Positions 2,711-17,444 are shown, numbered from the stretch's first letter. The stretch is DNA of 64,000 nt from Candidatus Latescibacterota bacterium (GCA_965205485.1 OZ242180.1:3648001-3712000); one strand, 5' to 3'. A program made the numbers and translations. Notes: a model not told the origin generated them from the sequence alone.

Positions 2711-2877
2711 CGAAGAGACATCCTGTGTCACACCAAGGGAAAGATGCTGCGGCAAACCCATTCGTCATCACGGCGGGTGCCCTTCGGGTAATCCGCCTTT
2801 CTCTTGTTTGAGAAGGGACCACCCAGGCCAGATGCTGCCATGAAATGTCCAATCTCAGATCGAGGAGAAGCGCGACA

Positions 2878-5319
2878 GTGAGCAACGCCAACCTGAACTG
2901 GATCGCGAACTATATCTGGGGAATCGCCGACGACGTACTGCGCGACCTGTACGTGCGAGGCAAGTACCGCGACGTGATCCTGCCGATGACCGTGCTGCGC
3001 AGACTCGACGCGGTACTGGAGGACAGCAAGCAGGCGGTCCTGGACATGCAGGCAAATCTCGATAAAATCGGTCTGGTCGACCAGGAGGAGCCGCTAAAGC
3101 AGGCAGCGGGACAGGACTTCTACAATACCTCCAGGTTCACCCTGCGCGACCTGCGCGCCCGCGCGAACCGCCAGCAACTCGAGGCCGACTTCAGGGCCTG
3201 GCTGGACGGGTTCTCCCTGAACGTCCAGGATATCCTCGAGAACTTCGAGTTCCGAAACCAGGTCTCCCGGCTTTCCAGGGCCGACGCGTTGGGGACGCTG
3301 ATCGAAAAGCTGACGTCACCTGATATCAACCTGAGCCCGGCCCCGGTGCACAACGGCGATGGTTCGGTCAGGCACTCCGGCCTCGACAACCACGGCATGG
3401 GGACGATCTTCGAGGAGCTGATCCGGCGCTTCAACGAGGAGAACAACGAGGAGGCGGGCGAACACTGGACCCCGCGCGATGCGGTGACGTTGATGGCGAA
3501 GCTGGTCTTCCTGCCCGTCGCTGATGAGATTACGTCCAGCACCTACCTGATCTACGACGGCGCGTGCGGTACAGGCGGCATGTTGACCGTGGCCGAAGAG
3601 GTCCTTCAGCAACTCGCCGCCGAGCGCGACAAGCAGGTCTCCACCCACCTGTACGGACAGGAAATCAATGCTGAGACCTACGCCATCTGCAAGGCCGACC
3701 TTCTGCTGAAGGGTGAAGGAGATGCGGCGGACAACATCGTCGGCGGCCCGGAGCATTCCACCCTGGCCAACGACGCCTTCCCGTCCCGAGAGTTCGACTT
3801 CATGCTCTCCAATCCGCCTTACGGGAAGAGCTGGAAGACTGACCTGGAACGCATGGGCGGAAAGAAGGAAATGCGGGACCCGCGGTTCGTGATCGAACAC
3901 GCGGACGATCCCGAGTATTCGCTCGTTACCCGGTCCAGCGACGGGCAGATGCTCTTTCTCGCCAACAAGTTGTCCAAGATGAAGGAGGGCGGCAGCCGCA
4001 TCGCTGAGGTGCACAACGGCAGTTCTTTGTTCACGGGTGACGCCGGGCAGGGCGAGAGCAACATCCGCCGCTGGATCATCGAGAACGACTGGCTGGAGGC
4101 GATCGTCGCACTGCCTCTCAACATGTTTTACAACACCGGCATCGCGACCTACGTGTGGGTGATCACCAACCGAAAACCGGAACATCGCCGGGGCAAGGTG
4201 CAGTTGATTGATGCCACCGAGTGGTACCGGCCGCTCCGCAAGAATCTGGGCAAGAAGAACTGTGAACTCGGCGAGGAGGACATCCGGCGCATCTGCGACA
4301 CATTCCTGGCCTTCGAGGAAACCGAACAGAGCAAGATCTTCGACAACGCCGCCTTCGGCTACTGGAAGGTGACGGTCGAGCGGCCGCTTCGGCTCGATGG
4401 GATCGACCCCAACCGCGCCTACAAGGCCTCTGAAATCAAGAAGTTAAAGGAGAGCAGTGAACGAAGCGAAACCGCGCCGCCCGTCATCAAGAGGGTCCAC
4501 AAGAGAGGCACGGAAGCTGACCCGCTGCGCGGCCGGTTCCAGGCTACTGTCGACGGCAGGCCCGTCGTGGTCGAGTACGAACCGGACACCGACCTGCGCG
4601 ACACCGAGCAGATTCCGCTGCAGGAAGAAGGCGGCATCGAAGCGTTCCTGGGGCGGGAAGTCCTTCCCTACGCCGCTGACGCCTGGTATCAAGCGGACAG
4701 CGTAAAAGTCGGCTACGAAATCAGCTTCACTCGATACTTCTACAAGCCCCAGCCCATGCGAACTTTGGAGGAAATCGGGGCGGATATTCTGGCGCTGGAG
4801 AAAGAGACTGAGGGGTTGCTGGGCGATCTTCCGATGGTGCGCGAACCGCCGGCTGTGTACGGCAAGCCGCGCATCTACGTGGATACCTCGGTGATCGGCG
4901 GGTGCCATGATGATGAGGTCCGTGAGGCGTCCATGGAGTTGTTCGAAAAGTTCAAGCTCGGAGATGCTATCCTCGTTTATTCCGATGTCATTCTCAGGGA
5001 ACTGGCGGCGGCGCCGGAAAGCGTGCGCCAGATGATCGATCAGATTCCCGCTGCAAACAAAGAGATGCACTTTCTCACGGATGAGGCAGAACGTCTTGCG
5101 GAAGCTTACATTGATTCCGGGGCTTTAGGCCTTGCGAACCGCGCTGACGCGGAGCATATCGCCCTTGCAACCCTGGCCGAGGCCGACGTTCTGGCAAGCT
5201 GGAATTTCAGGCACATGGTGAACTGGCGACGTAACCGGTTGTATAACTCAGTCAACCGGCAAATGGGGTACGCGGAGTTGAACGTCCTATCCCCGGAGGC
5301 AATCAGCTATGACAAATGA
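2878..5319 (+). CDS. hsdM: Type I RM methyltransferase HsdM with C-terminal PIN-domain fusion (alternative start 2845)
   Basis: N-terminal IWGIADDVLRD, motif I YDGACGTGGML, motif IV NPPY, HsdM tail GYEISFTRYFY..LEKETEGLL, then PIN (RIYVDTSV..RELA..ADAEHIALA..SWNFRHMVN) from ~4870. Confidence 0.95.
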   Translation: MSNANLNWIANYIWGIADDVLRDLYVRGKYRDVILPMTVLRRLDAVLEDSKQAVLDMQANLDKIGLVDQEEPLKQAAGQDFYNTSRFTLRDLRARANRQQLEADFRAWLDGFSLNVQDILENFEFRNQVSRLSRADALGTLIEKLTSPDINLSPAPVHNGDGSVRHSGLDNHGMGTIFEELIRRFNEENNEEAGEHWTPRDAVTLMAKLVFLPVADEITSSTYLIYDGACGTGGMLTVAEEVLQQLAAERDKQVSTHLYGQEINAETYAICKADLLLKGEGDAADNIVGGPEHSTLANDAFPSREFDFMLSNPPYGKSWKTDLERMGGKKEMRDPRFVIEHADDPEYSLVTRSSDGQMLFLANKLSKMKEGGSRIAEVHNGSSLFTGDAGQGESNIRRWIIENDWLEAIVALPLNMFYNTGIATYVWVITNRKPEHRRGKVQLIDATEWYRPLRKNLGKKNCELGEEDIRRICDTFLAFEETEQSKIFDNAAFGYWKVTVERPLRLDGIDPNRAYKASEIKKLKESSERSETAPPVIKRVHKRGTEADPLRGRFQATVDGRPVVVEYEPDTDLRDTEQIPLQEEGGIEAFLGREVLPYAADAWYQADSVKVGYEISFTRYFYKPQPMRTLEEIGADILALEKETEGLLGDLPMVREPPAVYGKPRIYVDTSVIGGCHDDEVREASMELFEKFKLGDAILVYSDVILRELAAAPESVRQMIDQIPAANKEMHFLTDEAERLAEAYIDSGALGLANRADAEHIALATLAEADVLASWNFRHMVNWRRNRLYNSVNRQMGYAELNVLSPEAISYDK

Positions 5320-5515
5320 TACCGCAACCGAGAGATTCGATTGCATCCGTTTTGTGCGTGAGGTCCGTGCGAGGATTGCCGAAGAAACGGCCGGCATGAG
5401 CAATAAAGAGCGAATCCAGTACTTTCGCTCGTATCACTATGAAGACCCTGTTCTGGAACGACTGGCCGTGCCTTTGCGCGAATTGGACGAAGACGAAAGA
5501 GGGTGAACCCTGATC
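5306..5515 (+). repeat. ~210-bp direct repeat, copy A (copy B 6764-6973)
   Basis: About 90% identical from gctatgac to gtgaacc(c)Ygatc. Confidence 0.95.
5309..5506 (+). CDS. Small FDC-family protein, putative antitoxin of the PIN domain (copy 1)
   Basis: Overlaps hsdM-PIN stop by 11 nt; RFDCIRFVREVRARIAEETAGMS motif shared with three neighbours. Confidence 0.75.
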   Translation: MTNDTATERFDCIRFVREVRARIAEETAGMSNKERIQYFRSYHYEDPVLERLAVPLRELDEDERG

Positions 5516-5674
5516 AATGTCCTGAGGAGCAGCCGGCACCGCGTGACCGTACCGAGGGTTCGGGACTTGCGAGTTGAAACGCTTGACGGAATCATTGCCG
5601 ACGTCGTGAAGTTTCGTGGTCTGTCCAAACCGAAGTACGAGAAACTCTCTTTGGTTGACTCCAAGATCCCCAGC

Positions 5675-5707
5675 CTGAAGCCTTTTCCCGCAAAAAAGGA
5701 TTCCGGC
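5675..5707 (+). pseudogene. hsdS N-terminal repeat relic
   Basis: LKPFPAKKDSG versus QPYPAYKDSG in the HsdS of this locus. Confidence 0.5.
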
Positions 5708-5709
5708 GC

Positions 5710-5793
5710 TTCAGGGCATACAACGAGGTCAATCGTCAAAACGGATACCCCGCTATTGACATTCGCACGCCGGAGGAGATCCTCCATGGCTGA
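5710..5793 (+). pseudogene. Orphan PIN-toxin C-terminal relic
   Basis: FRAYNEVNRQNGYPAIDIRTPEEILHG* aligns with HsdM-PIN end RLYNSVNRQMGYAELNVLSPEAISYDK*; overlaps next ATG. Confidence 0.8.
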
Positions 5794-6001
5794 TGACACC
5801 CATAAAATAAAGAAATTCGACTGTGTCGAATTCATGCGCCAGGCCCGCGCCCGCATTACCGCCGAAACCGCCGATATGACTGCTGACGAACGGATAGAGT
5901 GGTTCAATTCGAAGCGGTATTCCGACCCCGTGCTGGAAGCAATGGCCGCGCGAATACGCAAATCGAATGAGGACAGGGCAACAGACAATCCTGACGGCTG
6001 A
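5786..6001 (+). CDS. Small FDC-family putative antitoxin (copy 2)
   Basis: MADDTHKIKKFDCVEFMRQARARITAETADMTADERIEWF..YSDPVLE; SD gaggag. Confidence 0.75.
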   Translation: MADDTHKIKKFDCVEFMRQARARITAETADMTADERIEWFNSKRYSDPVLEAMAARIRKSNEDRATDNPDG

Positions 6002-6062
6002 ATCGAAGGCAAACTGAAGCGCATTGGCCGGCGATGCTCTGCATATCGCTACCGCGACGCTT

Positions 6063-6380
6063 CATCCTGAGGAGGCCAGCCCGCTCAGCATGACCTGTTT
6101 TACGATTGCCAGGCACGTGGCTTCCCGCTGTCATCCAGAGGACTTGCCCTGAGCGTGCGGTCCATGAGCCTTTGTCCTGAGCCTGCCGAAGGATAGTCAA
6201 AATGTCGAAGGCGCTGCCCTGAGCTTGTCGAAGGGTGCCGACCCCAGGCCGACGAAGGATCTACTGCAGCATCGCATCATCCTCGAGGGTTTTCAGGTGT
6301 CGATACCTGAGAGGCAGCACGTCCGCCTGCCGCGCGGGTCGGAAGAGGCGAAAATTGCTTCGACTCTGCTCAGAATGACA
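6063..6380. repeat. Cluster of REP-like CTGAG/GTCGAAGG palindromic repeats
   Basis: catcctgag..ctcagcatg hairpin; tgtcatccagag (6129) pairs with ctcagaatgaca (6369-6380); several cctgagc..cgaagg units. Confidence 0.7.
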
Positions 6381-6405
6381 TGCGTTGCGACAAACACCGG
6401 CCGAG

Positions 6406-6479
6406 GGCAACCTGGTTTCCGTTATCCGACCTTATCCCTGAGTATCCCACGTTTCCTGGACAGCAGTAATGAAGAATAA
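6406..6479 (+). pseudogene. Second, more degenerate PIN-toxin C-terminal relic
   Basis: NL..(G/R)YPTLSLSIP..NEE*, with the same 11-nt overlap onto the next FDC gene as hsdM-PIN and copy 1. Confidence 0.5.
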
Positions 6480-6702
6480 GAGCAACGCAAAGGCTTTCGA
6501 CTGCGTAAAGTGGACGCGCGAGGTCCGGGAGAGGATCAACGCGGAACTGGCGGGAATGTCCCCGGAAGAGCGGCGTCGGCGGCTCAACGCGGCTGTCCGT
6601 AAGGATCCCTACTTCGCTCGCATTCCGAAGTCCCGGGTTGTGCGACCCTGGCAGGACGATGGGGCAAGCGACGGCGGACGATCCGGCGCCGAGGGCCATT
6701 AA
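6469..6702 (+). CDS. Small FDC-family putative antitoxin (copy 3)
   Basis: KAFDCVKWTREVRERINAELAGMSPEERRR..KDPYF. Confidence 0.75.
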   Translation: MKNKSNAKAFDCVKWTREVRERINAELAGMSPEERRRRLNAAVRKDPYFARIPKSRVVRPWQDDGASDGGRSGAEGH

Positions 6703-6766
6703 TGATGTAGACCGGGAAGGGAACGAAGGCTTGCAGCAGCGTATGGACCAAGCGTGAGATTCCGCT

Positions 6767-6964
6767 ATGACCGATGAAGCCGCTGGCAAGAGATTCGATT
6801 GCATCCGCTTTGTGCGTGACGTCCGTGCGACGATTGCCGAGGAAACAGCCGGCATGAGCAATAAAGAGCGAATCCAGTACTTTCGCTCGTATCGCTATGA
6901 AGACCCTGTTCTGGAACGACTGGCGGCGCCTTTGCGCGAATTGGACAAAGACAAACGAGGGTGA
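6767..6964 (+). CDS. Small FDC-family putative antitoxin (copy 4, near-identical to copy 1)
   Basis: RFDCIRFVRDVRATIAEETAGMSNKERIQYFRSY. Confidence 0.75.
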   Translation: MTDEAAGKRFDCIRFVRDVRATIAEETAGMSNKERIQYFRSYRYEDPVLERLAAPLRELDKDKRG

Positions 6965-7010
6965 ACCCCGATCTTTGCCCGGTCGAGTAGCCGGCGAGAA
7001 ACAGGGTTTG

Positions 7011-7161
7011 CACATTGGTTCGTACAAATCCGCCGCAACCAGACGCGTCAACGCCAGATTGGATTCGGCAATACATCGTGGATCACCCGGCCGGATGGTC
7101 TGAAGACCCGGAGAATCCTGACGCTAAGAATGGCCAAGACACCTGGAGGATATACAGATGA
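7011..7161 (+). pseudogene. Internally deleted relic of a REP-associated tyrosine transposase (RAYT/IS200-like)
   Basis: IGSYKSAATRRVNAR, then in another frame IRQYIVDHPAGWSEDPENP; both are typical C-terminal blocks of this family. Confidence 0.65.
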
Positions 7162-7370
7162 GACGGAGCGGGATCATCTTCGAGGTAACTGAAGCGATTG
7201 AAGGCGGATACGACGCCAGAGCGCTCGGCCACAGCATCTTCACGCAGGGAGAAGACTGGAACGACCTGAAGGCGATGGTGCGAAATGCGGTGCGCTGTCA
7301 TTTTGACGACGAGAACATGCCACGAGTGATCAGGCTGCATCTCGTCAGAGTCGAGGCCATCGCGGTATGA
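7158..7370 (+). CDS. HicB-like antitoxin
   Basis: IIFEVTEAIEGGYDARALGHSIFTQGEDWNDLKAMVRNAVRCHF; SD ggagg. Confidence 0.8.
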   Translation: MRRSGIIFEVTEAIEGGYDARALGHSIFTQGEDWNDLKAMVRNAVRCHFDDENMPRVIRLHLVRVEAIAV

Positions 7371-7411
7371 AACTGCCCCGAGACGGGCGCCGAATTCGGG
7401 AGGAAATGGAA

Positions 7412-7735
7412 ATGACAGCGGAAACCCTGAATCAACATATTGAGATCACACCGGGCATTTCAGGCGGCAAACCGCGCATTGCCGGTCGTCGAATTGCCGT
7501 GGAGAATATCGTCATCTGGCACGAGCGCCTGGGCAAGAGCGCTGACGAAATCGCCAGTGATTACGATATTACTCTTGCGGATGTGTACGCAGCACTGGCT
7601 TACTATTTCGATCATCAGAATGAGATTGACCAATCTCTTGAGGAGAGTCGTGCATTTGTAGAATCCTTACGTCAGAAGTTCTCTTCGAAGATTTCCCAGA
7701 AGATTCAAGACCCGACCCAACATGGCAACGATTAA
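7412..7735 (+). CDS. DUF433 antitoxin (in frame with an upstream MKLPRD HicA-like stub from 7367)
   Basis: IEITPGISGGKPRIAGRRIAV..LADVYAALAYYFDH; SD gggagg. Confidence 0.9.
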   Translation: MTAETLNQHIEITPGISGGKPRIAGRRIAVENIVIWHERLGKSADEIASDYDITLADVYAALAYYFDHQNEIDQSLEESRAFVESLRQKFSSKISQKIQDPTQHGND

Positions 7736-8051
7736 GTTTTTGACCGATGAGAATGTTTCCAGAGCAGTTGTAATGGGGCTGCGACGTAGAGGTGTGGACG
7801 TACTGACTGTTGCCGAAGCGGGTAGTCGTGGAGCGTCTGACGAAGTAATTCTCGGAATTGCCGGGGAAACAGAACGCGTCATCTTCACGCAGGATGATGA
7901 CTTTCTTCGTCTTGCAGTAATTGTACATGACCACAGAGGAATTGTCTACACGTCTCAAGAAAATACGGTTGGTGAGATAATTCGTGGCTTGATGTTGATC
8001 CATCAGGTTCTGGAAGCGGAAGAGATGGTTGGGCATGTTGAATACCTGTAG
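7722..8051 (+). CDS. DUF5615 PIN-like toxin
   Basis: FLTDENV, SDEVIL, IFTQDDDFL. Confidence 0.9.
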   Translation: MATIKFLTDENVSRAVVMGLRRRGVDVLTVAEAGSRGASDEVILGIAGETERVIFTQDDDFLRLAVIVHDHRGIVYTSQENTVGEIIRGLMLIHQVLEAEEMVGHVEYL

Positions 8052-8124
8052 AACCCATCGAAATCTTGGCCAATTCAGACCTGTTTGTCGCCCACCGCAC
8101 GATTGCCTTGTACCTTGCGTTGGG

Positions 8125-8184
8125 CGCTGACGCTTGATTTCGGACGACCAGCGTCGAGCTCAACCACGAAATCAGCTTCACCCG
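8125..8184 (+). pseudogene. Degenerate copy of hsdM C-terminal segment (4674-4733)
   Basis: 44/60 nt ungapped identity, including exact acgaaatcagcttcac; TGG changed to TGA. Confidence 0.75.
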
Positions 8185-8217
8185 GTTTAGTATAGCCCCC
8201 TCTTTGTAGGTGCCGGA

Positions 8218-9045
8218 ATGCCTTTTCCAGAACCACTCAAGAGAAGGGTCCGTGAACAGGCACTTTTCCACTGCTGTATATGCCAGAAGATATCTGTCAG
8301 TTTGGAAATCCATCATATCATCCCAGAAGCAGCAGGCGGGCCGGATACGGAGGATAACGCGGCACCACTATGCCCCGGCTGTCACGGTGATTTTGGAGGT
8401 AACCCGGAAAAGCGTTCTCGGATTCGAGAGATGCGAGATCGCTGGTACGATATATCCGAGAATTGTGTTATTGGATCCACAAGAAATCCAATGCCAGATT
8501 CTCTTGAAACTGATCGATATTCATTTGCCTGTGACGAGTTTGTCCATCCTCTGATTGTTCGTGAGTTGTTAGGATGGATTTCCGATACATCAGAGACGAT
8601 TGTTGGAGTGGATCTTGAATCGGCCAACACGAGCAATCGGTTCCATGGTGACTTCGAGATAGATGATCGCGATGGCAGAAAGTGGGTGAAGTGGAACGAA
8701 CCTGAGAGTGCCCGGAGAGGGTTTTTCAAATACGCACACATTGCGACTTCGCCAACCGGAGTTGAAATGGTGGAGTGCTACGATTGTGGTGGAGGTAGTG
8801 GCGTATTTGGAAGTGTTGGGCTATTCCTTATTGATCCAGATCGAGCTTTAGACGAATCTTGTTCAGGAAAAATACCCACGCGGGATCGCCAGGTGCTTAA
8901 GGTCCTCGGATCAGTTCGTTTGGGGGATAGATACGTTGGCGAGATTACGTACAATGATAAGATCCTTGCCATTAGTCCAGACGAGGGTAGGATCAGATCT
9001 CTCGGAAGCACTTCAGAGTCGTGCCGCAAGTACCGTATTTTATAG
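8218..9045 (+). CDS. HNH endonuclease with uncharacterised C-terminal domain
   Basis: CCIC..EIHHIIP..GG..EDNAAPLCPGCH; visibly lower GC than backbone. Confidence 0.85.
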   Translation: MPFPEPLKRRVREQALFHCCICQKISVSLEIHHIIPEAAGGPDTEDNAAPLCPGCHGDFGGNPEKRSRIREMRDRWYDISENCVIGSTRNPMPDSLETDRYSFACDEFVHPLIVRELLGWISDTSETIVGVDLESANTSNRFHGDFEIDDRDGRKWVKWNEPESARRGFFKYAHIATSPTGVEMVECYDCGGGSGVFGSVGLFLIDPDRALDESCSGKIPTRDRQVLKVLGSVRLGDRYVGEITYNDKILAISPDEGRIRSLGSTSESCRKYRIL

Positions 9046-9098
9046 CAGTTCATCCTTTCCTTACATCCAATTCGTCACGATGATAACTCAGGCCCATT

Positions 9099-10532
9099 GT
9101 GCCCAATCCCATTAACCCATATCCTGCCTACAATCCTCCGAGTGTCGAATGGATCGGCGATGTGCCGGCGCATTGGGAAATTAGGCGACTCCGCACCGTC
9201 GCTGAGTTGCGTGTCAGTAACGTGGATAAGCACACTAAGGAGGGTGAAATTCCCATTCGGCTCTGCAATTACGCCGATGTGTACAAGAACGACCGTATCA
9301 CTTCGGCCATGCCATTCATGAATGCAACGGCTTCGCAGGGTGAAATCGAGAAATTCCATCTGAAGAAAGGTGATGTCCTCATTACCAAGGACTCAGAGAC
9401 TTGGGACGATATTGGGGTTCCCGCCCTGGTAACGGAGCCAGCCATGAACCTTATTTCTGGCTACCATTTGGCTTTGCTCCGGCCTTTCAAGGAGGCGATA
9501 GGGCCGTACCTGGCTCTGACGTTGCAGAGTAAGCCGGTTGCGTATCAGTTTCACGTGCGGGCGAATGGCGTAACAAGGTACGGCCTTACTCACGCTGGGA
9601 TCCAGTCCGTTCGTATCCCGCTCCCACCCCTCCTCGAACAAAACGCCATCGTCCGCTTCCTCGACCACGCCGACCGACGTATCCGGCGCTACATCCGTGC
9701 GAAGCAGAAGCAGATTGCGCTGCTGGAGGAGCAAAAGCAGGCTATTATCCACCACGCCGTCACGGGCCAGATCGACGTCCGAACCGGCCAGCCCTACCCG
9801 GCCTATAAGGACTCAGGTGTGGAGTGGCTGGTGGAGGTGCCGGTGCATTGGGCGGTACTTCCTCTGAAGAGGGCTTTTGGCTCTATGGAGTACGGAATCT
9901 CAGATTCGGGATCCGATGACGGCACTATTGGCCTGCTCACAATGGGGAACGTTCGTGACGGAACGGTAACGGTACCAACGTACGGCGGAGTCACCTCTGT
10001 TGATCCGACCCTGCTACTGCAGGACAAGGATCTACTCTTTAACCGCACAAATAGCCCTGATCTGGTAGCCAAAGTCGGTCTGTTTCGTTCCCAAGGGAGA
10101 CCAATAACTTTCGCTTCGTATCTCGTGCGAATGCGAACCGGCCCTGAAAACAGTCCAGAATACCTAAATCTGCTCTTGAACGATGTAGGCTTCGTGTCTG
10201 TCGCACGAAGAGCAGCAATTCCCAGTCTACATCAGTCGAATCTCAATCCAACCCGTTACGGTCGTCTGAAGATTCCACTTCCTCCTCAGTCTGAACAGGA
10301 GGCAATCGTCCAAGGTGTAACCGAGTGGTCGTCGGTCGTTAATTCTGCGATTGTGAAAACGAACCGTGAAATCGATCACTTACGCGAATACCGCACCCGC
10401 CTGATCGCCGATGTCGTCACCGGCAAGCTCGATGTACGCGATGCGGCGGCTGAACTACCTGAAGAAGACCTCTCGGGTGACGCAGAGGAATCGGCTGAAG
10501 AGTATAAAATCAAAACGGACTTGACCGTATGA
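9099..10532 (+). CDS. hsdS: Type I RM specificity subunit HsdS
   Basis: Two PYPAY..VEW..VPxHW repeats, two TRDs, PLPP..EQ motifs, RTRLIADVVTGKLDVR, acidic tail. Confidence 0.95.
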   Translation: MPNPINPYPAYNPPSVEWIGDVPAHWEIRRLRTVAELRVSNVDKHTKEGEIPIRLCNYADVYKNDRITSAMPFMNATASQGEIEKFHLKKGDVLITKDSETWDDIGVPALVTEPAMNLISGYHLALLRPFKEAIGPYLALTLQSKPVAYQFHVRANGVTRYGLTHAGIQSVRIPLPPLLEQNAIVRFLDHADRRIRRYIRAKQKQIALLEEQKQAIIHHAVTGQIDVRTGQPYPAYKDSGVEWLVEVPVHWAVLPLKRAFGSMEYGISDSGSDDGTIGLLTMGNVRDGTVTVPTYGGVTSVDPTLLLQDKDLLFNRTNSPDLVAKVGLFRSQGRPITFASYLVRMRTGPENSPEYLNLLLNDVGFVSVARRAAIPSLHQSNLNPTRYGRLKIPLPPQSEQEAIVQGVTEWSSVVNSAIVKTNREIDHLREYRTRLIADVVTGKLDVRDAAAELPEEDLSGDAEESAEEYKIKTDLTV

Positions 10533-10725
10533 AGGTCCTGAGCACCTGCCCGGCCGCTCAATTGATCGGGGAGGCCGTTCAAGAGCGTGCAATTGCACCT
10601 GGTGACCCAACAGCAACTCCAAGACTGATGCGTTATGTGCCTTGGTGGGCGACGGAGTGATCCGATACTGGTACTTGATGACGATGTTGTTCAGGCAACC
10701 GAATCGAGCATGAAATACCCATATA

Positions 10726-10740
10726 TGATAATTATTATCA
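10726..10740. promoter_or_regulatory. Perfect 7-1-7 palindrome TGATAAT-T-ATTATCA (Fur-box-like)
   Basis: Exact match to the TGATAATnATTATCA consensus, inside an AT-rich patch. Confidence 0.4.
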
Positions 10741-10785
10741 ATAAATTATGTTGATCAAGTCGTACTTGACGGGTACTTGATAACT

Positions 10786-10818
10786 GTGGCCGCCGACACA
10801 ACCGGAATTGGACTTGAG
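10786..10818 (+). pseudogene. hsdR 5' relic 1
   Basis: GTG-AADTTGIGLE versus HsdR GTG-NTDTTESGLE; 22/33 nt. Confidence 0.55.
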
Positions 10819-10930
10819 TCGAAACAATTCGGTACACATTCCGCAGGAACCACCCGCGTTAACGCCCAATTGAAAGTCCACCGTTGAAAACTTCAACAAG
10901 ACTCATTTTAGTCCCTCGCCGCCACAAGTG

Positions 10931-10978
10931 TTGCCCATCGCCCGGCAAATGTTTATATTGTGTAACACAGAAACTGTG
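10931..10978 (+). promoter_or_regulatory. Sigma70-like promoter TTGCCC-17-TATATT with overlapping inverted-repeat operator
   Basis: tgtgt-a-acaca and cacag-aaa-ctgtg palindromes, conserved in the copy at 12040-12087. Confidence 0.7.
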
Positions 10979-10989
10979 AGGATGTGACT

Positions 10990-11181
10990 ATGAGAAATAT
11001 TACCGTTTCCGTCGACGAAGAGACCCATCGGCTCGCCCGTATCCGTGCGGCAGAGTTGGACACGTCGGTATCGGCACTCGTGCGAGACTTCCTGAAGAAC
11101 CTGGCTGCCGACCGCGTCGGCGGAACAGCGGCCGCAAGGCAGGACGTTGAGTCCGCAGCCGAACGTCGTCGCGGGATGTAG
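10990..11181 (+). pseudogene. Truncated RHH (VapB-like) antitoxin, paralog of 12099-12461, without toxin
   Basis: MRNITVSVDEETHRLARIRAAELDTSVS identical to the paralog; early TAG. Confidence 0.75.
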
Positions 11182-11273
11182 CACGCGGTGATTGAGAAAA
11201 TCACTACCAATGGCGGCCGATTCAGTTGTGGTGAACCACAACACGTTTACGGTTTGATCGCAGACACCTGACG

Positions 11274-11327
11274 GACGTTGAAGGACCTGCAGAAGAGCGC
11301 ACAGTTGCAGCGGAGGTGAGAATATGA
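11274..11327 (+). pseudogene. hsdS 3' tail relic
   Basis: DVEGPAEERTVAAEVRI* versus HsdS DAEESAEEYKIKTDLTV* (33/54 nt, stop in register); ATGA overlap with next gene. Confidence 0.6.
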
Positions 11328-11566
11328 TTGACTGGTCGAAATGCCCGGTCGTGGAGAGCGTGCCTGGGAAGGTGAGCGGGGCCTGGGTGTTCAAAGGAAC
11401 CCGGCTGCCGCTGTACGTCCTCTTTGAGAACCTTGCGGCGGGCGCGACCATCCACGACTTCATCGAGTGGTTCGGAGGTGTGGATGAATCGGAGGTGAAG
11501 GCAGTGCTGGAGCATGTGGCACAGGAGCTCCGTACAAGGGTGGTTCATGCGCATCCTGTTCGATAA
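11324..11566 (+). CDS. DUF433 antitoxin
   Basis: VESVPGKVSGAWVFKGTRLPL..LFENLAAG. Confidence 0.9.
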   Translation: MIDWSKCPVVESVPGKVSGAWVFKGTRLPLYVLFENLAAGATIHDFIEWFGGVDESEVKAVLEHVAQELRTRVVHAHPVR

Positions 11567-11882
11567 CGGGACACCCAGGCAGTTGCGCGTCCGGCTCTTT
11601 GGCCATGTCGTCGAAGAGGCCAGGGAACGCGGATGGGACGGTTTGGCCAACGGAGACTTGCTGGACCGTGCTGAAGAATTCGGCTTCGATGTCTTGATCA
11701 CGACCGACCAAAGCATCCAATATCAGCAGAACATGCCAGACAGACAGGTGGCCGTGGTTGTCTTGATGCAAACCGCTTGGCCGCGCATCTCGCAGAGAAC
11801 GGAAGCCATCCGCGTTGCATTGGACGAAATCCAGCCCGGCGAAGTCCGGGAAGTCCACATCCCGGCGATAGGCGAAACATAG
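11547..11882 (+). CDS. DUF5615/VapC45-like PIN toxin
   Basis: MRILFDNGTP, NGDLL, LITTDQSIQYQQN. Confidence 0.88.
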   Translation: MRILFDNGTPRQLRVRLFGHVVEEARERGWDGLANGDLLDRAEEFGFDVLITTDQSIQYQQNMPDRQVAVVVLMQTAWPRISQRTEAIRVALDEIQPGEVREVHIPAIGET

Positions 11883-11884
11883 CG

Positions 11885-11986
11885 CGGATCAACGACGCCA
11901 GCAAGAAAGGGCTGGAGCGTCCTGTATGAACGACCCTGGTCGGCCATCGCTGCAATCGCCTCCGGGGTCCGATTGTAGGGGACAGG
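11885..11986 (+). pseudogene. hsdR 5' relic 2
   Basis: DASKKGLERPV*TTLVGHRC..IVGD aligns ungapped with HsdR DTTESGLERLICAALTGQGC..TVGE (TGC changed to TGA). Confidence 0.75.
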
Positions 11987-12039
11987 TTTCGCAGGCGCCT
12001 TTACCAGGTCAACGATGGTAACCCGTCCTGCCGCAGGTC

Positions 12040-12087
12040 TTGTCCGTGGGCCGGTTGATGACCATACTGTGTTACACAGAAACTGTG
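12040..12087 (+). promoter_or_regulatory. Promoter TTGTCC-17-CATACT with operator ctgtgt-t-acacag / cacag-aaa-ctgtg
   Basis: Spacing and palindromes; duplicated at 10931-10978. Confidence 0.7.
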
Positions 12088-12098
12088 AGGTTGTGACT

Positions 12099-12461
12099 AT
12101 GAGAAATATCACCGTATCCGTCGACGAAGAGACACATCGGCTCGCGCGCATCCGTGCGGCAGAATTGGACACGTCGGTATCGTCCCTCGTGCGAGACTTT
12201 CTGAAGAGTCTGGCAGAGAACCCGGACACGGATGGCGAATCCGGTTCCGGGTCTGTCGAAACCATCTATCAGCGTCGGTGCAGGCTGCTGCGGGAAGTGC
12301 TCGCGGACTTCGATAGACAGGGCATCGGGTTGCGGATGTCCGACAACCTTCCCAGGGAGGCGTTGTACGATCGCAACGCGGCAAGGGCCGAAGCTGTCGC
12401 CGAGCGGGAGCGGCAGCGCAGTATCTCCGAAGCACTCGGATCCTCACCATGCGATTCGTAG
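12099..12461 (+). CDS. RHH antitoxin (VapB-like)
   Basis: N-terminal ribbon-helix-helix; C-terminal LPREALYDR; overlaps vapC. Confidence 0.85.
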   Translation: MRNITVSVDEETHRLARIRAAELDTSVSSLVRDFLKSLAENPDTDGESGSGSVETIYQRRCRLLREVLADFDRQGIGLRMSDNLPREALYDRNAARAEAVAERERQRSISEALGSSPCDS

Positions 12462-12874
12462 ATACCAACATTCTGCTGTATGCTGTCAGCGAGATCCCGG
12501 AGGAGGCCGACAAGCGGGCGCGGGCGGCGGAAGTCCTGACGGAACCCGACCTCGCTGCGTCCGTTCAGGTGCTGCAGGAGTTCTACCACCAGGCCACCCG
12601 GCCGACTCGAATCGGCAGTCTTTCTGGCAATAAAGCATTGCAATTCCTGGAGCCGATTCTGCTTTTTCGGATTCAGACCATGTCGACGGACGTATTTCTC
12701 AATGCCATTGCCATTAGCCGACGATTTCGCCTTTCCTACTGGGATGGCGCAATTCTCGCCGCAGCCCGTGCCTTGGGCTGCGATGCCGTGTACTCCGAGG
12801 ATTTGAGCACAGAACAGGACTACGACGGCCTCCGGGTCATCAATCCGTTCACGCACCAACAGGCTCCGCAGTGA
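12449..12874 (+). CDS. vapC: PIN-domain toxin VapC
   Basis: FVDTNILLY, QVLQEF, SYWDGAI, YSEDL, RVINPF. Confidence 0.93.
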   Translation: MRFVDTNILLYAVSEIPEEADKRARAAEVLTEPDLAASVQVLQEFYHQATRPTRIGSLSGNKALQFLEPILLFRIQTMSTDVFLNAIAISRRFRLSYWDGAILAAARALGCDAVYSEDLSTEQDYDGLRVINPFTHQQAPQ

Positions 12875-15872
12875 ACACAGACACCACCGAGAGCGGGCTT
12901 GAACGCCTGATTTGCGCCGCCCTGACAGGCCAGGGTTGCGAGCCGCCTGTTTCAGGCACCGTGGGAGAACCGCCCGCCGGTTACGGCGGTGTCGGCTGGA
13001 GCTGCGGCAATCACCACGACTATGACCGTGAGTTCTGCGTCGATCTGGCGCAGCTGTCGGCATTCCTGCACGCCACCCAGCCGGAGGCCGCCGAGGCGTT
13101 GCCGCTTTCTGAAGACGGTCCCGTGCGGCGCGCATTCCTGACCCGTCTCCAGGGCGAAATCAGCAAGCGCGGCACCATCGACGTGCTGCGCAACGGGATC
13201 AAGCACGGAGCGTTGAATCTGGACCTGTTCTACGGCACGCCGTCGGCCGGCAATCCGCAGGCACAGGAATTGTTCGAACTGAACCGGTTTACCGTTACGC
13301 GACAGCTTCGCTACAGCCGGGACGATGCGCAGCGGGCGCTGGACATCGGGCTGTTCATCAACGGGCTGCCGGTGTTCACGTTCGAGTTGAAGAACAGTCT
13401 CACCAAACAGACGGTGGACGATGCGGTCTGGCAGTACAAAAAGGACCGCAACCCGCGTGAAAAGCTGTTCGAGTTCGGGCGGTGCATCGCGCACTTCGCG
13501 TTGGACGAACGCGAGGTGCGTTTTTGTACGCACCTGAAGGGGAAGGCGTCCTGGTTCCTTCCCTTCAACCGCGGCTGGAACGACGGGGCGGGCAACCCGC
13601 CCAATCCGGACGGTCTTTCAATCGCCTATCTCTGGCGCGAAGTCCTCACCCGGGAGAGTCTCACCAACATCCTCGAGAATTACGCGCAGGTGGTGGCGTC
13701 GAAGGACGAAAAGAGCGGAAGGCAGCGAAAGACTCAGATCTGGCCGCGCTACCATCAACTCGACGTGGTGCGCCGCCTGCTGGCCGACGCGGGCGACCGC
13801 GGCGCCGGTCAGCGCTACCTGATCCAGCACTCCGCCGGCAGCGGCAAGAGCAACTCCATCGCCTGGCTCGCGCACCAGTTGATCGGACTGGAGAAGGACG
13901 ACGCTCCGGTCTTCGACTCGATCATCGTCGTCACCGACAGGGTCATCCTGGACCGTCAGATCCGCGACACGATCAAGCAATACGCCCAGGTGGCGGCAAC
14001 GGTCGGACACGCCGACCGCTCGGGCGATCTTCGTGAGTTCATCGAAAGCGGGAAGAAGATCATCATTTCCACGGTCCAGAAGTTTCCGTTCATTCTGGAC
14101 GAGATCGGCAATGAACAGCAGGGGAAGCGCTTCGCCATCATCATCGACGAAGCCCACTCGAGCCAGGGGGGTCGTACCAGCGCGGCGATGGCTCAGGCGC
14201 TGTCGGAGGCAGGCGAAGAGGACGATCAGGATACCTTCGAGGACCGGATCAACCGCCTGATGGAGTCGCGCAAGCTCCTGCCCAACGCCAGCTACTTCGC
14301 GTTTACCGCCACGCCGAAGAACAAGACGCTCGAGATCTTCGGCGCTCCGGAACCGCAGCCGGACGGTTCGGTGAGGCATCGCGCCTTCCACAGCTACACC
14401 ATGAAGCAGGCGATCCAGGAAGGATTCATCCTGGACGTACTGTCGCACTATACGCCTGTGGCGAGCTACTACAAGCTTGCCAAGACGGTTGAAGACGACC
14501 CCGAGTTCGACGCTCGAAAGGCGCAGAAGAAGCTGCGCCGCTTCGTGGAGGGCAGCGATCACGCGATCCGCCTGAAGGCCGAGATCATGGTCGACCACTT
14601 CCACGACCAGGTGCTGAAGCAGGGCAAGATCGGCGGCGCGGCGCGGGCGATGGTGGTCACGAACGGCATCGAGCGCGCGATTCAGTACTATCACGCCATC
14701 CGCGACTATCTCAAGGAGCGCAAGAGCCAATTTGAGGCGCTGGTCGCGTTCTCCGGCGAACACGACTTCGGCGGCGGCAGGGTAAGCGAGGCGTCGCTGA
14801 ACGGCCTGCCTTCGGCCCAGATCGCCAGGCGATTTCAGGAGGATCCGTACCGGTTCCTGGTGTGCGCGGACAAATTTCAGACCGGCTACGATGAGCCCCT
14901 GCTGCACACCATGTACGTAGACAAGACGCTGTCCGGCATCAAGGCCGTGCAGACGCTGTCTCGCCTCAACCGGGCCCACCCGAAGAAGCACGACGTGTTC
15001 GTTTTCGACTTTCTCAACGACACCGATACGATTCAAGACGCGTTTTCTGACTTCTACCGGACGACGATTCTGGCCGATGAGACCGACCCGAACAAGCTGC
15101 ACGACCTGCAGGCGAACTGGACGGACCCCAGGTCTATTCTGAAACGCAGGTCGACGAGTTTGTGCGGCTCTATCTGGAAGGGGTGGAACGCGACCGGCTG
15201 GATCCTATTCTGGACGCTTGTGTCGCGGTCTATCGACACGACCTTGACGAAGACGGCCAGGTTGCATTCAAGGGCAACGCCAAAGCATTCGTGCGTACGT
15301 ACGCCTTTCTTTCGTCCGTGCTTCCGTATAACGTTGCCGAATGGGAAAAACGTTCGATTTTCCTGAACTTCCTGGTGCCGAAGTTGCCGGCGCCCGAGGA
15401 AGAGGACCTCTCCAAGGGAATCCTGGACGCGATCGATCTGGACAGTTATCGGGTGGAGAAGCGGGCGATGCAACGGATCCTGTTGGAGGACGAAGATGCC
15501 GAGATCGATCCGGTACCGGGTTCAGGGGGAGGGCATCAACCGGAGCTGGAATTGGATCGACTTTCCAACATCATTCGGGAATTCAACGATAACTATGGGC
15601 ATATTAAATGGGCAGATGAAGACCGTGTACAGCAACTCATCGTCGAGACAATTCCCGCCCGCGTCGCCGCTGACACCGCGTTCCAAAACGCCCGGGTAAA
15701 CTCCGACCGGCAGAATGCACGGATCGAACACGACAAGGCGCTGCTGCGCGTGATGACCGCCATGATGAAGGACGACACCCAGCTATTCAAGAATTTCATG
15801 GACAATCCTGGCTTTAAGCGCTGGATGACTAACAAGGTGTTCGGACTTGCGTACAATCCGGTAGAGAGGTAA
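12871..15872 (+). CDS. hsdR: Type I RM restriction subunit HsdR, split by a -1 frameshift at ~15114
   Basis: FELKN, HSAGSGKS, DEAH, FTATP, FQTGYD; one restored G gives LHDLQAELDGPQVYS running into ORF 15162-15872. Confidence 0.93.
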
Positions 15873-15996: not shown

Positions 15997-16200
15997 ATGA
16001 AGATTCGGGAACTATTGAGAGAATTGCGCAAGGACGGATGGTACGAGGTGCGCCGCCGCGGGAGCCACCGGGTGTTGCGACATTCGACAAAGCGTGGCAT
16101 CGTCGTGGTTGCTGGGAACCCCAACGCGGATATCAAGGCCGGTACGCTGAGCCAGGTACTCAAACAGGCCGGATTGAAAGAGAACGACATGGAGGATTAA
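15997..16200 (+). CDS. hicA: HicA toxin
   Basis: LRKDGW..RRRGSH..H..IKAGTLSQVLKQAGL. Confidence 0.9.
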   Translation: MKIRELLRELRKDGWYEVRRRGSHRVLRHSTKRGIVVVAGNPNADIKAGTLSQVLKQAGLKENDMED

Positions 16201-16201
16201 G

Positions 16202-16423
16202 ATGGCACAGACTGAGTATCTTGTCATTGTAGAGAATTACGGCCACGGGTCGTACGGGGCGTATGTACCGGAACTTCCGGGGATTGGCGTTGCGGGTGAG
16301 ACGGAGGAGCAAGTGCGCGACCTGGTTGCCGAAGCTATCAGGTTGTATCTAGACGAACTTGAGCGGGATGGTGAGTCGAAGTCGACTTCGGTAGTGGTGA
16401 ACCACTACACCGTTACGGTCTAA
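16202..16423 (+). CDS. hicB: HicB antitoxin (short form)
   Basis: YGAYVPELPG..AGETEEQ..EAIRLYL. Confidence 0.9.
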   Translation: MAQTEYLVIVENYGHGSYGAYVPELPGIGVAGETEEQVRDLVAEAIRLYLDELERDGESKSTSVVVNHYTVTV

Positions 16424-16437
16424 CCCTCGGTGCCCGA

Positions 16438-16476
16438 CGGCTTTCAACCCCGCGATGCCGGAGTGCTTGAAAGCCG
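16438..16476. terminator. Inverted repeat after hicB
   Basis: cggctttcaa..ttgaaagccg 10-bp stem, no clear U-tract. Confidence 0.4.
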
Positions 16477-16577
16477 GTTGATTCGACATCACACCGCTCT
16501 GGATGTTATCTTAAGTAGTACGGTAGGGAGAGATAGATGAAAATCGTATATGTAATCAGATCGCTCACGGGACTGCG

Positions 16578-17444
16578 ATGAACAAGAGGTATGCCCCTGT
16601 AGAGAGGTGCATCTACTGCGGTACAAACGAAGGACCTCTTGGTGACGAGCACATTGTCCCGCTTGCGCTCGGTGGCCGACTAATCCTGCCTAAATCAAGT
16701 TGTAGAGATTGCGAGAAGATAATAAATCGTCAGGTCGAAGGGCCAATCTTACAGAGTGAATGGGGAGATTTCCGGATTAAACACAATTTTCCGACGCGAA
16801 ACAAGAAAGGTCGACGTTCTACATCCGAGTTACGTCGGCCCGACGGATCGAAAATGCGCATTCCCATCCGCGAACACGCAACGCCTGTTCCTTTATATCA
16901 ATTCCGGGATGCACGTTTACTTTCAGGAGGTCAGGCTCGCGAAAACGACTTTACAGTATCCATGCTTGCAAGTCACACAGACGAAATGGCGATGCAGAAG
17001 AGGCATGAAGAGTGGGACCGTACGCATACATTCGTGGCTGAGCCATACCGATTTGCTCGATGGATCGCGAAGATTGCATATAGCTATGCAGTTGCAGAAC
17101 TCGGAGGAAGGTTGTTCATGCCTCTTGTTACTGATGTGATTCTTGGGAAATCCGAAGACGTTCTGTCCATCGTCGGAGGATCCAAGTCTCCGCACAAAGG
17201 AACTCTTTCTGGAACAATCGAAGTAAAGACCAGCTTTCAAATTGAAGTACGAACAGCGCAATATGGTATGGGATTGGTAGGACTCTTGATCGTACACGTG
17301 CAATTGCTAGAACCGTTAGCGATACCCTCGTACCACACTGTGGTTGGCATCATTGACTTTGCGAATCCCCATCATTGCGAGGAATTCGAAAAATTCCGCG
17401 TGCAGCATCGATGGCAGCCAAATGAAATTGGAGGAAGTGCGTAG
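16578..17444 (+). CDS. HNH endonuclease family protein
   Basis: CIYCG..DEHIVPLALGG..SCRDC; lower GC. Confidence 0.85.
   Translation: MNKRYAPVERCIYCGTNEGPLGDEHIVPLALGGRLILPKSSCRDCEKIINRQVEGPILQSEWGDFRIKHNFPTRNKKGRRSTSELRRPDGSKMRIPIREHATPVPLYQFRDARLLSGGQARENDFTVSMLASHTDEMAMQKRHEEWDRTHTFVAEPYRFARWIAKIAYSYAVAELGGRLFMPLVTDVILGKSEDVLSIVGGSKSPHKGTLSGTIEVKTSFQIEVRTAQYGMGLVGLLIVHVQLLEPLAIPSYHTVVGIIDFANPHHCEEFEKFRVQHRWQPNEIGGSA

Follow-up and report, generated by a model that had tools for sequence, protein, structure and literature searches.

Stacked cargo cassettes separated by relics of hsd gene ends in a restriction-modification locus of type I from a Candidatus Latescibacterota bacterium

We analysed a stretch of 64,000 nucleotides (nt) from the genome of a Candidatus Latescibacterota bacterium (GCA_965205485.1, OZ242180.1:3648001-3712000; hereafter the window), in which hsdM, hsdS and hsdR form one operon with cargo genes in the two intervals between them, the M-S slot and the S-R slot. 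The cargo modules in both slots are separated by relics of hsd gene ends. Judged by alignment with the genes of relatives, five such relics are real, three being recognized by family profiles and two by the intact gene end of a relative. Across related loci, the geometry of the junctions, as read from the aligned sequences, is that of addition with a duplicated target and not of exchange. Both stacks were probably built by repeated addition of segments of related operons beside the resident segment, without its replacement.

Relics of hsd gene ends in the window and in relatives

All features described here lie on the plus strand unless stated otherwise. The hsdM gene (2845-5319; Pfam N6_Mtase and HsdM_N) carries an in-frame fusion to a PIN nuclease domain at its C-terminus (about 4870-5319); in relatives its start codon lies near codon 12, and the NPPY motif of HsdM at 323-326 is invariant. 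The hsdS gene (9099-10532; Pfam, PADLOC) is intact, and hsdR (12871-15872; Pfam) has a one-base frameshift near 15113. The frameshift is likely an assembly error, because it is missing from relatives and contigs of four out of four public runs carry the extra base (contigs which may themselves stem from relatives). By gene content, that is the Pfam and PADLOC matches, the operon is a restriction-modification system of type I. Oxidoreductase and sugar isomerase genes flank it throughout the genus.

Profiles were built from the intact gene ends in 15-17 loci from relatives and run on the window and on 200 dinucleotide shuffles of its 6081 nt of cargo. The hsdM tail relic (8125-8186) had been reported in a preliminary description of the locus as matching 44 of 60 nt to 4674-4733, and this is exact (8125-8184); it scored 24.2 bits with the family profile against a best of 4.3 in the shuffles, and in one relative (G008) it is found at the same place and better kept. 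The hsdS head relic (5661-5708, proposed at 5675) scored 11.8 bits against a shuffle maximum of 9.5 and recurs in G004, G006, G008, G009 and G012; its fusion to a PIN tail had been missed, as had the PIN domain on hsdM itself. The second hsdR head relic (11885-11957) was found where proposed, with 13.5 bits over 11888-11957 against a shuffle maximum of 9.1, and is followed by a decayed REP-like palindrome at 11978-12001.

As for the other two relics, the first hsdR head, proposed at 10786, reached only 4.6 bits with the family profile (10781-10817), which is inside the range of the shuffles, and the hsdS tail proposed at 11274 was missed by the profile. Both were recovered with the genes of single relatives. 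The intact hsdR leader plus start of G012 aligned with 10763-10817 at 78% identity (raw score 46, shuffle maximum 32, reached by 0 of 200 shuffles), and the hsdS end of G013 aligned with 11272-11327 at 73% identity (raw score 37, shuffle maximum 32, 0 of 200). As had been described, the stop of the hsdS tail overlaps the DUF433 start, and the alignment with G013 continues into the same DUF433 gene. The shuffle controls thus supported three relics with profiles and these two only with gene ends picked after the best relative was known; for this reason the shuffle figure of the hsdS tail is modest, and it is the continuous synteny that carries weight. The hsdS relics of the window consist of conserved ends of less than 60 nt only, without spare recognition domains.

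Relatives' sequences were needed to detect most relics of the window. When the window's own HsdM, HsdS and HsdR were compared with the interval by tblastn, useful E-values were obtained only for the PIN tail and the hsdM tail. Contigs of public runs, one of which (X1) may be the source sample, span the junctions at 5706, 8125, 10786 and 11885 without differences; across the junction at 11274 there are 9 differences. As contigs bridge them, the junctions are not assembly chimeras. Nine differences in the contigs of X1 and X2 lie within the DUF433 gene (11350-11425) and may represent another population allele.

The locus was matched in 35 of 41 genomes searched, and 30 loci were assembled. We counted profile hits of at least 12 bits inside the two slots of 25 loci of canonical gene order (order level). 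This count omitted G026, G034 and G038 (non-canonical or slot-less) and G017 and G002 (no whole hsdS record), as well as a collapsed upstream copy of the locus in G008. All 46 hits were the expected gene end, in the expected slot and co-oriented: the M-S slot accounts for 17 hsdM tails plus 8 hsdS heads, and the S-R slot for 8 hsdS tails plus 13 hsdR heads, with no hit (0/46) in the wrong slot or on the wrong strand. Relics were present in 17 of the 25 loci, and in 12 out of 12 same-genus loci with intact hsdM. G026 and G034 (L050, L051) have the gene order S-R-M-S with hsdR abutting hsdM, as circular permutation would give.

Outside the genus, 80 loci were fetched with the HsdM-PIN alignment, 6 of which repeat genus genomes, leaving 74. 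Curated relics were found in at least 22 of them, a lower bound since the set covers only 10 kb behind hsdM; hits representing intact, split or collapsed genes (L065, L073, L078, L081, L088, L091, L101, L113, L115) and one hit in L060 were dropped. The relic loci belong to several phyla, with records titled Latescibacterota, Acidobacteriota, Spirochaetia, Gammaproteobacteria, Entotheonella, Ignavibacteria, Gemmatimonadota and others. Twenty-five in-slot hits obey the slot rule, four more lie before hsdM or after hsdR, and no minus-strand relic hit appeared in the 80 loci scanned. HsdM proteins 69-94% identical occur across many phyla (L053-L132), suggesting wide horizontal exchange.

A relic was also detected in a second type I locus of the same genome, whose HsdM belongs to another family (25% identity). 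Here an hsdR head relic (C1:113272-113395; 83 bits against a maximum of 30 in 100 shuffles) separates two paralogous TIR/8xMP pairs. The S-R slot of this locus (L136:2100-17900, i.e. G000 C1:105100-120900) holds PIN_4, Mrr and the two TIR/8xMP pairs, a RAYT gene lies behind hsdR, and both hsdM and hsdR look frameshifted.

The proposal that the two slots accrete cargo was upheld by these comparisons: cargo number and order differ in each relative, and four cassettes of the window stand alone between hsd genes elsewhere. These are the DUF433/DUF5615 pair between intact hsdM and hsdS in L063, the HicB-like/HicA pair between hsdM and hsdS in L071, a RAYT gene in L058, and, in the S-R slot of L081, the second DUF433/DUF5615 pair; hsdS of L081 is split further upstream. 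The expectation of solitary cassettes was not borne out for the HNH gene, which was never found alone between hsd genes in the loci compared. In G038, hsdS abuts hsdR, i.e. the slot is empty. Synechocystis PCC 6803, a tractable host, carries the HsdM family of the window on its plasmid pSYSG (L134:14001-20700). There, DUF433/DUF5615 is the sole occupant of the M-S slot, five genes follow hsdS, and relics are absent.

Several joins between relics were seen directly: an hsdS head joined to an hsdM tail in G015, G016 (twice) and L084, an hsdR head joined to an hsdS tail in L061, and, both in the window and in five relatives, an hsdS head joined to the PIN tail belonging to hsdM. Similar head-to-tail joins were deduced from the sequences of G007, G008, G011 and G014. 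The exact overlap at joins is 0-7 nt, at variable position and often within a partially alike patch. The starts of 22 hsdM relics are spread from profile column 100 to column 277, so that borders vary within some 180 nt of hsdM; a single start site for all of them, near codon 604, was ruled out by comparison of DNA borders. With lengths of 45-480 nt, common orientation and variable starts, the relics form direct repeats of more than 30 bp. The tail of the upstream core gene is likewise duplicated before hsdM, in differing lengths, in G001, G008 and G009. The hsdM relic of G009 is 93% identical to the hsdM of G003 and 86% to its own, and on these identities is of foreign origin. The crossover point in the hsdM of G001 relative to that of G009 could not be placed.

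Routes by which the stacks may have grown

Growth by addition would begin with the entry of a piece of a related allele, spanning a gene tail, the cargo and the head of the gene that follows. The genome encodes ComEC and DprA, which makes uptake of donor DNA plausible. The downstream end of this piece would then be joined out of register to the upstream tail at a short microhomology, giving junctions of the kind observed, and the other end would recombine by homology, most simply by circularization followed by a single crossover. The product would retain one whole hsdM, hsdS and hsdR, in the order gene X, cargo 1, a head of gene X+1 fused to a tail of gene X, cargo 2 and finally gene X+1. If the added piece ended inside hsdM, the PIN domain would be swapped, and the old PIN with its partner would be pushed downstream. 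Deletions at microhomologies, apparent from comparison of relatives, would later trim the stack, with toxins lost before antitoxins, while shared cassettes and relics would act as repeats for unequal exchange between alleles. The hsd relics would be by-products of addition which may later serve as repeats.

The preliminary description had instead proposed that slots are filled by recombination between homologous loci at conserved hsd ends. Ordinary allelic exchange of this kind, with two crossovers, is compatible with the cargo of G001 and G009, which is 96-99% identical while their hsdM genes are 85-94% identical, and with cargo and hsdS being mosaic between species. However, two in-register crossovers replace a slot instead of stacking a second one and therefore leave neither a relic nor a second gene end; stacking needs an out-of-register join, and the observed joins link non-homologous ends at variable short microhomologies. 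As an origin of the relics allelic exchange is contradicted, and we regard it as highly improbable that it filled the slots, although it can still explain the spread of ready-made stacks. The earlier observation is confirmed, and its interpretation is partly supported. A whole second allele of the locus might also have been inserted in tandem and collapsed by deletion to one hsd set, the relics being its leftovers. In G008, the intact locus is preceded by a collapsed copy of all of it, 8-13% diverged, with the core gene's tail between the two; post-hsdR cargo persists upstream of hsdM in G001 and G009, the only copy in G002 is a collapsed one, and in the window an HicB tail relic lies in the S-R slot (11212-11257; 83% identity to the HicB end of G011, raw score 52 against 28 in shuffles; 85% to 16387-16419 of the window) while HicAB follows hsdR. 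Taken as proof of such a tandem, the HicB tail is weakened by intact HicB genes inside the S-R slots of L058, L061, L063 and L069, so that the tail need not derive from behind hsdR. In addition, piecemeal collapse would be expected now and then to strand an hsdS tail or an hsdR head between hsdM and hsdS, and none of the 46 hits is of this kind. We therefore consider whole-locus tandems an unlikely source of the stacks. Duplication of a slot in place, between sister chromosomes at a microhomology, with one copy later overwritten by a foreign allele, could account for the three RAYT-tail/hsdS-head units of G001, which are 93-94% identical, and in pneumococcus transformation is reported to stimulate tandem duplication at repeats (PMC3784515). 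This appears very unlikely as the general route: adjoining cassettes are mostly different alleles (PIN types 55-60% and DUF433 types 64-72% identical), and the relic of G009 is nearer to another species than to its own hsdM.

No integrase had been noticed in the island. This is true of intact genes, since the window has no intact mobility gene, but not of relics, as a collapsed RAYT-like Y1 transposase lies in the M-S slot (7025-7120; 95% identity over 60 nt to an intact gene of G011, raw score 105, shuffle maximum 33). Tyrosine recombinases (PF00589) were found in the genome only at C1:1884726 and C1:2863414, far from the locus, and the same search revealed no integron integrase beside the array. 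Comparison of cassette borders, for which no dedicated attC model was run, detected no fixed recombination site. By the features examined, the array is neither a shufflon nor an integron. RAYT, an HUH Y1 transposase, might still cut at REP palindromes and move slot cassettes as single-stranded circles. An intact RAYT-like gene stands in the M-S slot of five among the 12 loci of the genus (G001, G006, G011, G013 and G014; 69.3 bits with NF047646 against a cut-off of 80, and 19 bits with PF01797 against 23), and in RAYT-bearing loci REP copies lie before hsdM, before hsdS and after the hsdS stop, i.e. at gene borders. The second type I locus also has an adjoining RAYT, and RAYT-tail units are repeated in G001, G007, G008 and G011. 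Against this, none of 45 relic borders has a REP 15 nt away or less (for 7 distinct ones the distance is 21-35 nt or about 40 nt), and G015, G016 and G032 carry relics in a locus without REPs of these types. No RAYT was found in the retrieved DNA of 18 of 22 outside relic loci, and RAYT is itself broken into heads and tails like other cargo. On balance, we regard RAYT as cargo and judge transport by it to be unlikely. The window's own genome has 18 exact REP copies, none of that type in the locus. A six-frame search of this genome with PF01797 gave nothing, yet the RAYT of the second locus passes Pfam when cut out. In L022 and L024 (G006 and G013), a REP palindrome is inserted in frame inside hsdR, about 250 nt in.

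Several observations also weigh against repeated addition. No circle and no fresh tandem with identical repeats was seen in the assembled contigs. The relics are old (73-91% identical), and many junctions are common to several species, so that the 46 hits correspond to far fewer independent events. With increasing distance from hsdM, the relics show no steady loss of identity that would indicate a direction of growth. Overlap lengths were estimated with proxy donors, as the true donors are missing, and several junctions have no exact overlap. G008 demonstrates that a whole-locus tandem followed by erosion also occurs. Three plasmid loci of cultured bacteria have no relics although two of them have embedded cargo, from which it follows that embedding does not need the proposed route. 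Finally, the assignment of toxins and antitoxins rests on family knowledge and one prediction, and the counts in the antitoxin-only tally given below are not independent.

Cargo genes, orphan antitoxins and the HsdM-PIN fusion

Further relics were found by tiling the window with intact genes of relatives. All kinds of cargo genes leave ends in the window, the hsd genes being just one kind. The M-S slot opens with a gene for a small unnamed protein (5309-5506), predicted from a modelled complex to be the antitoxin of the fused PIN domain (allele A). It is followed by an HicA toxin gene tail (5533-5657; 86.5% identical to an intact gene of G006, the copy in G004 being HicA by Pfam) and, joined to the hsdS head, the tail of a second PIN allele, B (5704-5793; 91% identical to the hsdM-fused PIN of G006). 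Three orphan antitoxin candidates come next: one of allele B (5786-6001, by comparison with relatives), one of allele C (6469-6702), which follows an hsdM-fused PIN in G008, and a second copy of allele A (6767-6964), with 88% DNA identity to 5303-5537. Between the first two lies a palindromic repeat element (6062-6428, no strand assigned) with dozens of matches in the same genome; one X1 contig joins 6019 to 6479, suggesting a variant without this element in the same sample. A putative PIN fragment at 6032-6061 is not claimed, as its score was inside the shuffles (30 against 32). Behind the RAYT relic, a gene which we take to be HicB-like is followed by an 18-nt HicA head (7158-7384), the pair being intact in G002, G004 and G006. 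The slot ends with an intact DUF433/DUF5615 pair (7406-8051; Pfam) and an HNH nuclease gene (8218-9045; Pfam HNH), which in G008 also stands behind an hsdM tail relic. The segment 8052-8120 has an ambiguous likeness to a decayed hsdS leader and is not claimed. PADLOC names no cargo gene, except for a weak type IV match of the HNH gene.

In the S-R slot, a putative decayed DUF433 head overlaps the hsdS stop (10525-10553; a short match, 79% identical over 29 nt to the place where hsdS and DUF433 meet in G013). Beyond the first hsdR head there is a truncated ribbon-helix-helix antitoxin gene lacking its toxin (10990-11181; Pfam and comparison). The hsdS tail leads into a second intact DUF433/DUF5615-like pair (11324-11882), which in G013 lies directly behind hsdS; its DUF433 passes Pfam, while the DUF5615 partner reached 16.6 bits, below the cut-off of 23.8. 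An intact ribbon-helix-helix/PIN toxin-antitoxin pair (12099-12874; Pfam PIN 2.5e-11) precedes hsdR. Behind hsdR, the window contains an HicA/HicB pair (16012-16423; Pfam) and a second HNH gene (16012-17444 together); HicAB precedes hsdM in G011 and G013. A small membrane-like open reading frame (2345-2710) lies between the core gene and hsdM and, among the loci fetched, is common only to G012.

Presuming that the cargo genes have the toxin and antitoxin roles of their families, 13 genus loci contain 44 intact toxin-antitoxin pairs, 37 antitoxin-only cases and 1 toxin-only case, the latter split by insertion. Antitoxin-only cases arose in both gene orders, 17 in antitoxin-first and 20 in toxin-first modules. 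This pattern suggests that deletions likely spare antitoxins and that toxins are lost first, as expected if the toxins are active. The Kobayashi group has reportedly described selection against the loss of addictive modules during replacement (see the review PMC2993543).

The PIN domain appears to be a swappable tip of HsdM. The search with residues 630-824 scored 8000 candidates of 453-1442 residues; its best 120 matches were all HsdM proteins, each covering at least 85% of the region, and the PIN parts of relatives match PF01850/PF13470. In 665 pairs (111 homologues) with HsdM at least 90% identical, the median PIN identity was 58%, and it is this divergence on near-identical carriers that points to swapping. 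Nine of 12 genus hsdM genes are fused to PIN, with four PIN types. G001 keeps a displaced module intact, with hsdM-PIN-partner followed by hsdM tail-PIN-partner, and the displaced unit matches the front end of G009 at 98.6% identity. Fusions of HsdM with a variable PIN were found in at least 120 protein clusters, with loci titled Spirochaetia, Vicinamibacterales, Gammaproteobacteria and Palauibacter; in L087 and L109, three partner genes are stacked behind HsdM-PIN.

When folded with the fused PIN, the small partner gave a complex score of 0.75, compared with 0.00 for the best of three controls, the alignments being our own. The runs agreed in at least 94% of contacts, with a partner pLDDT of at least 76. 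Of 157 solved pairs, 116 reached the mark set for this score, as did 2 of 215 mismatched ones; part of the score may come from a resemblance to solved VapBC pairs. The predicted interface covers the conserved PIN residues 680, 719, 768 and 787, so the gene behind the fused PIN is predicted to encode an antitoxin covering the PIN active site. The partner has no significant Pfam match, and the ESM Atlas returned only unnamed clusters.

A comparable arrangement is seen in the orphan tip/immunity modules of Rhs and contact-dependent inhibition systems, in which a conserved carrier bears a variable C-terminal nuclease, the inhibitor gene adjoins it, and displaced modules lie downstream. In the window, however, the adjoining inhibitor is a predicted one, the carrier is a cytoplasmic methyltransferase, presumably not exported (its Pfam matches include no export domain), and most displaced PIN copies are decayed. 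More tentatively, the locus might operate as an integrase-free cassette array, in which cuts by its own restriction enzyme set free entire slots of related alleles as circles, hsd ends are the landing pads, the PIN toxin on HsdM is exchanged in the manner of a polymorphic toxin tip, and the stacked orphan antitoxins are kept as a library neutralizing PIN alleles of incoming rival operons; we find this doubtful.

Known systems and significance

Embedded cargo and insertion with long target duplication are both known already, whereas the stacking rule and the swappable HsdM-PIN fusion are apparently new. Our literature searches (subscription journals and supplements were outside their scope) turned up neither stacked relics of hsd ends nor a fusion of HsdM with PIN. 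Furuta, Abe and Kobayashi (2010; PMC2853133) described the insertion of restriction-modification genes with long target duplication, which resembles the present case in its long variable direct repeats, often across a start or stop, and in the lack of an integrase. In that case it is the restriction-modification genes that are inserted, into a target located elsewhere; in the present one, hsd ends are the target, the slot of another allele is the insert, and events are nested many times over. That account defines inserts as carrying both R and M genes, which applies only to the whole-locus copy of G008, as the slot-scale inserts hold cargo and gene ends and not whole R and M genes. In its working, the array resembles insertions with long target duplication that are nested and directed at gene ends of the operon itself.

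It has been reported repeatedly that the gaps between hsdM, hsdS and hsdR hold variable defence cargo in a common orientation. Payne et al. (2024; 10.1101/2024.01.29.577857) listed genes embedded in type I restriction-modification, BREX, DISARM and Hma systems, DarTG2 is embedded in a type I system of enteropathogenic Escherichia coli (PMC12255303), and the rlo/mlo genes of Campylobacter are embedded cargo as well (cited in PMC5183652). The S-R gap has been called a potential recombination hotspot, but in the available text these reports offer no mechanism, loci with pseudogenes were filtered out, and relics or stacking are not described; the main text of Payne et al. never uses the word recombination. 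Matelska et al. (2017; PMC5499597) noted DUF433-PIN and other PIN modules in hsdM-hsdS operons, not conserved between close species; section 17 of that account mentions no HsdM-PIN fusion, orphan antitoxin stack or relic.

Other systems share single features with the locus. The pneumococcal tvr locus (Kwun et al. 2018; PMC6265443) is a restriction-modification locus of type I with toxin-antitoxin genes, direct repeats and excision and reintegration of circles, but as described it possesses a recombinase of its own, its repeats are fixed and it reshuffles the domains of hsdS, whereas the locus in the window has no recombinase, variable joints and added cargo. Homology-facilitated illegitimate recombination (HFIR) likewise combines one homologous end with one short-microhomology end (PMC3240628). 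Its classical form deletes recipient DNA and only the circular route duplicates the target; in E. coli, with a plasmid substrate, a linearized donor recircularized and a single crossover gave partial target duplications of 109-950 bp (PMC3240628). In a tandem paralogue cluster, a unit running from one gene's end into the beginning of the following gene has been described (PMC2568036). The available accounts of RAYTs (PMC5581495) report no link to restriction genes.

Matelska et al. (PMC5499597) remarked that no direct physical connection of a toxin-antitoxin module to a methyltransferase had been demonstrated; HsdM-PIN with its predicted blocking partner suggests such a link. Thousands of defence genes sit inside type I restriction-modification, BREX and DISARM systems, and the route of their entry into this "genomic sink" is open (Payne et al.). 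The loci described here keep scars of each addition, so that the order and joints of events can be read. Gene-level pipelines miss relics because they drop pseudogenes; searched for directly, relics offer a simple screen for recently grown defence loci. The additive route is likely a testable way for defence islands to grow.

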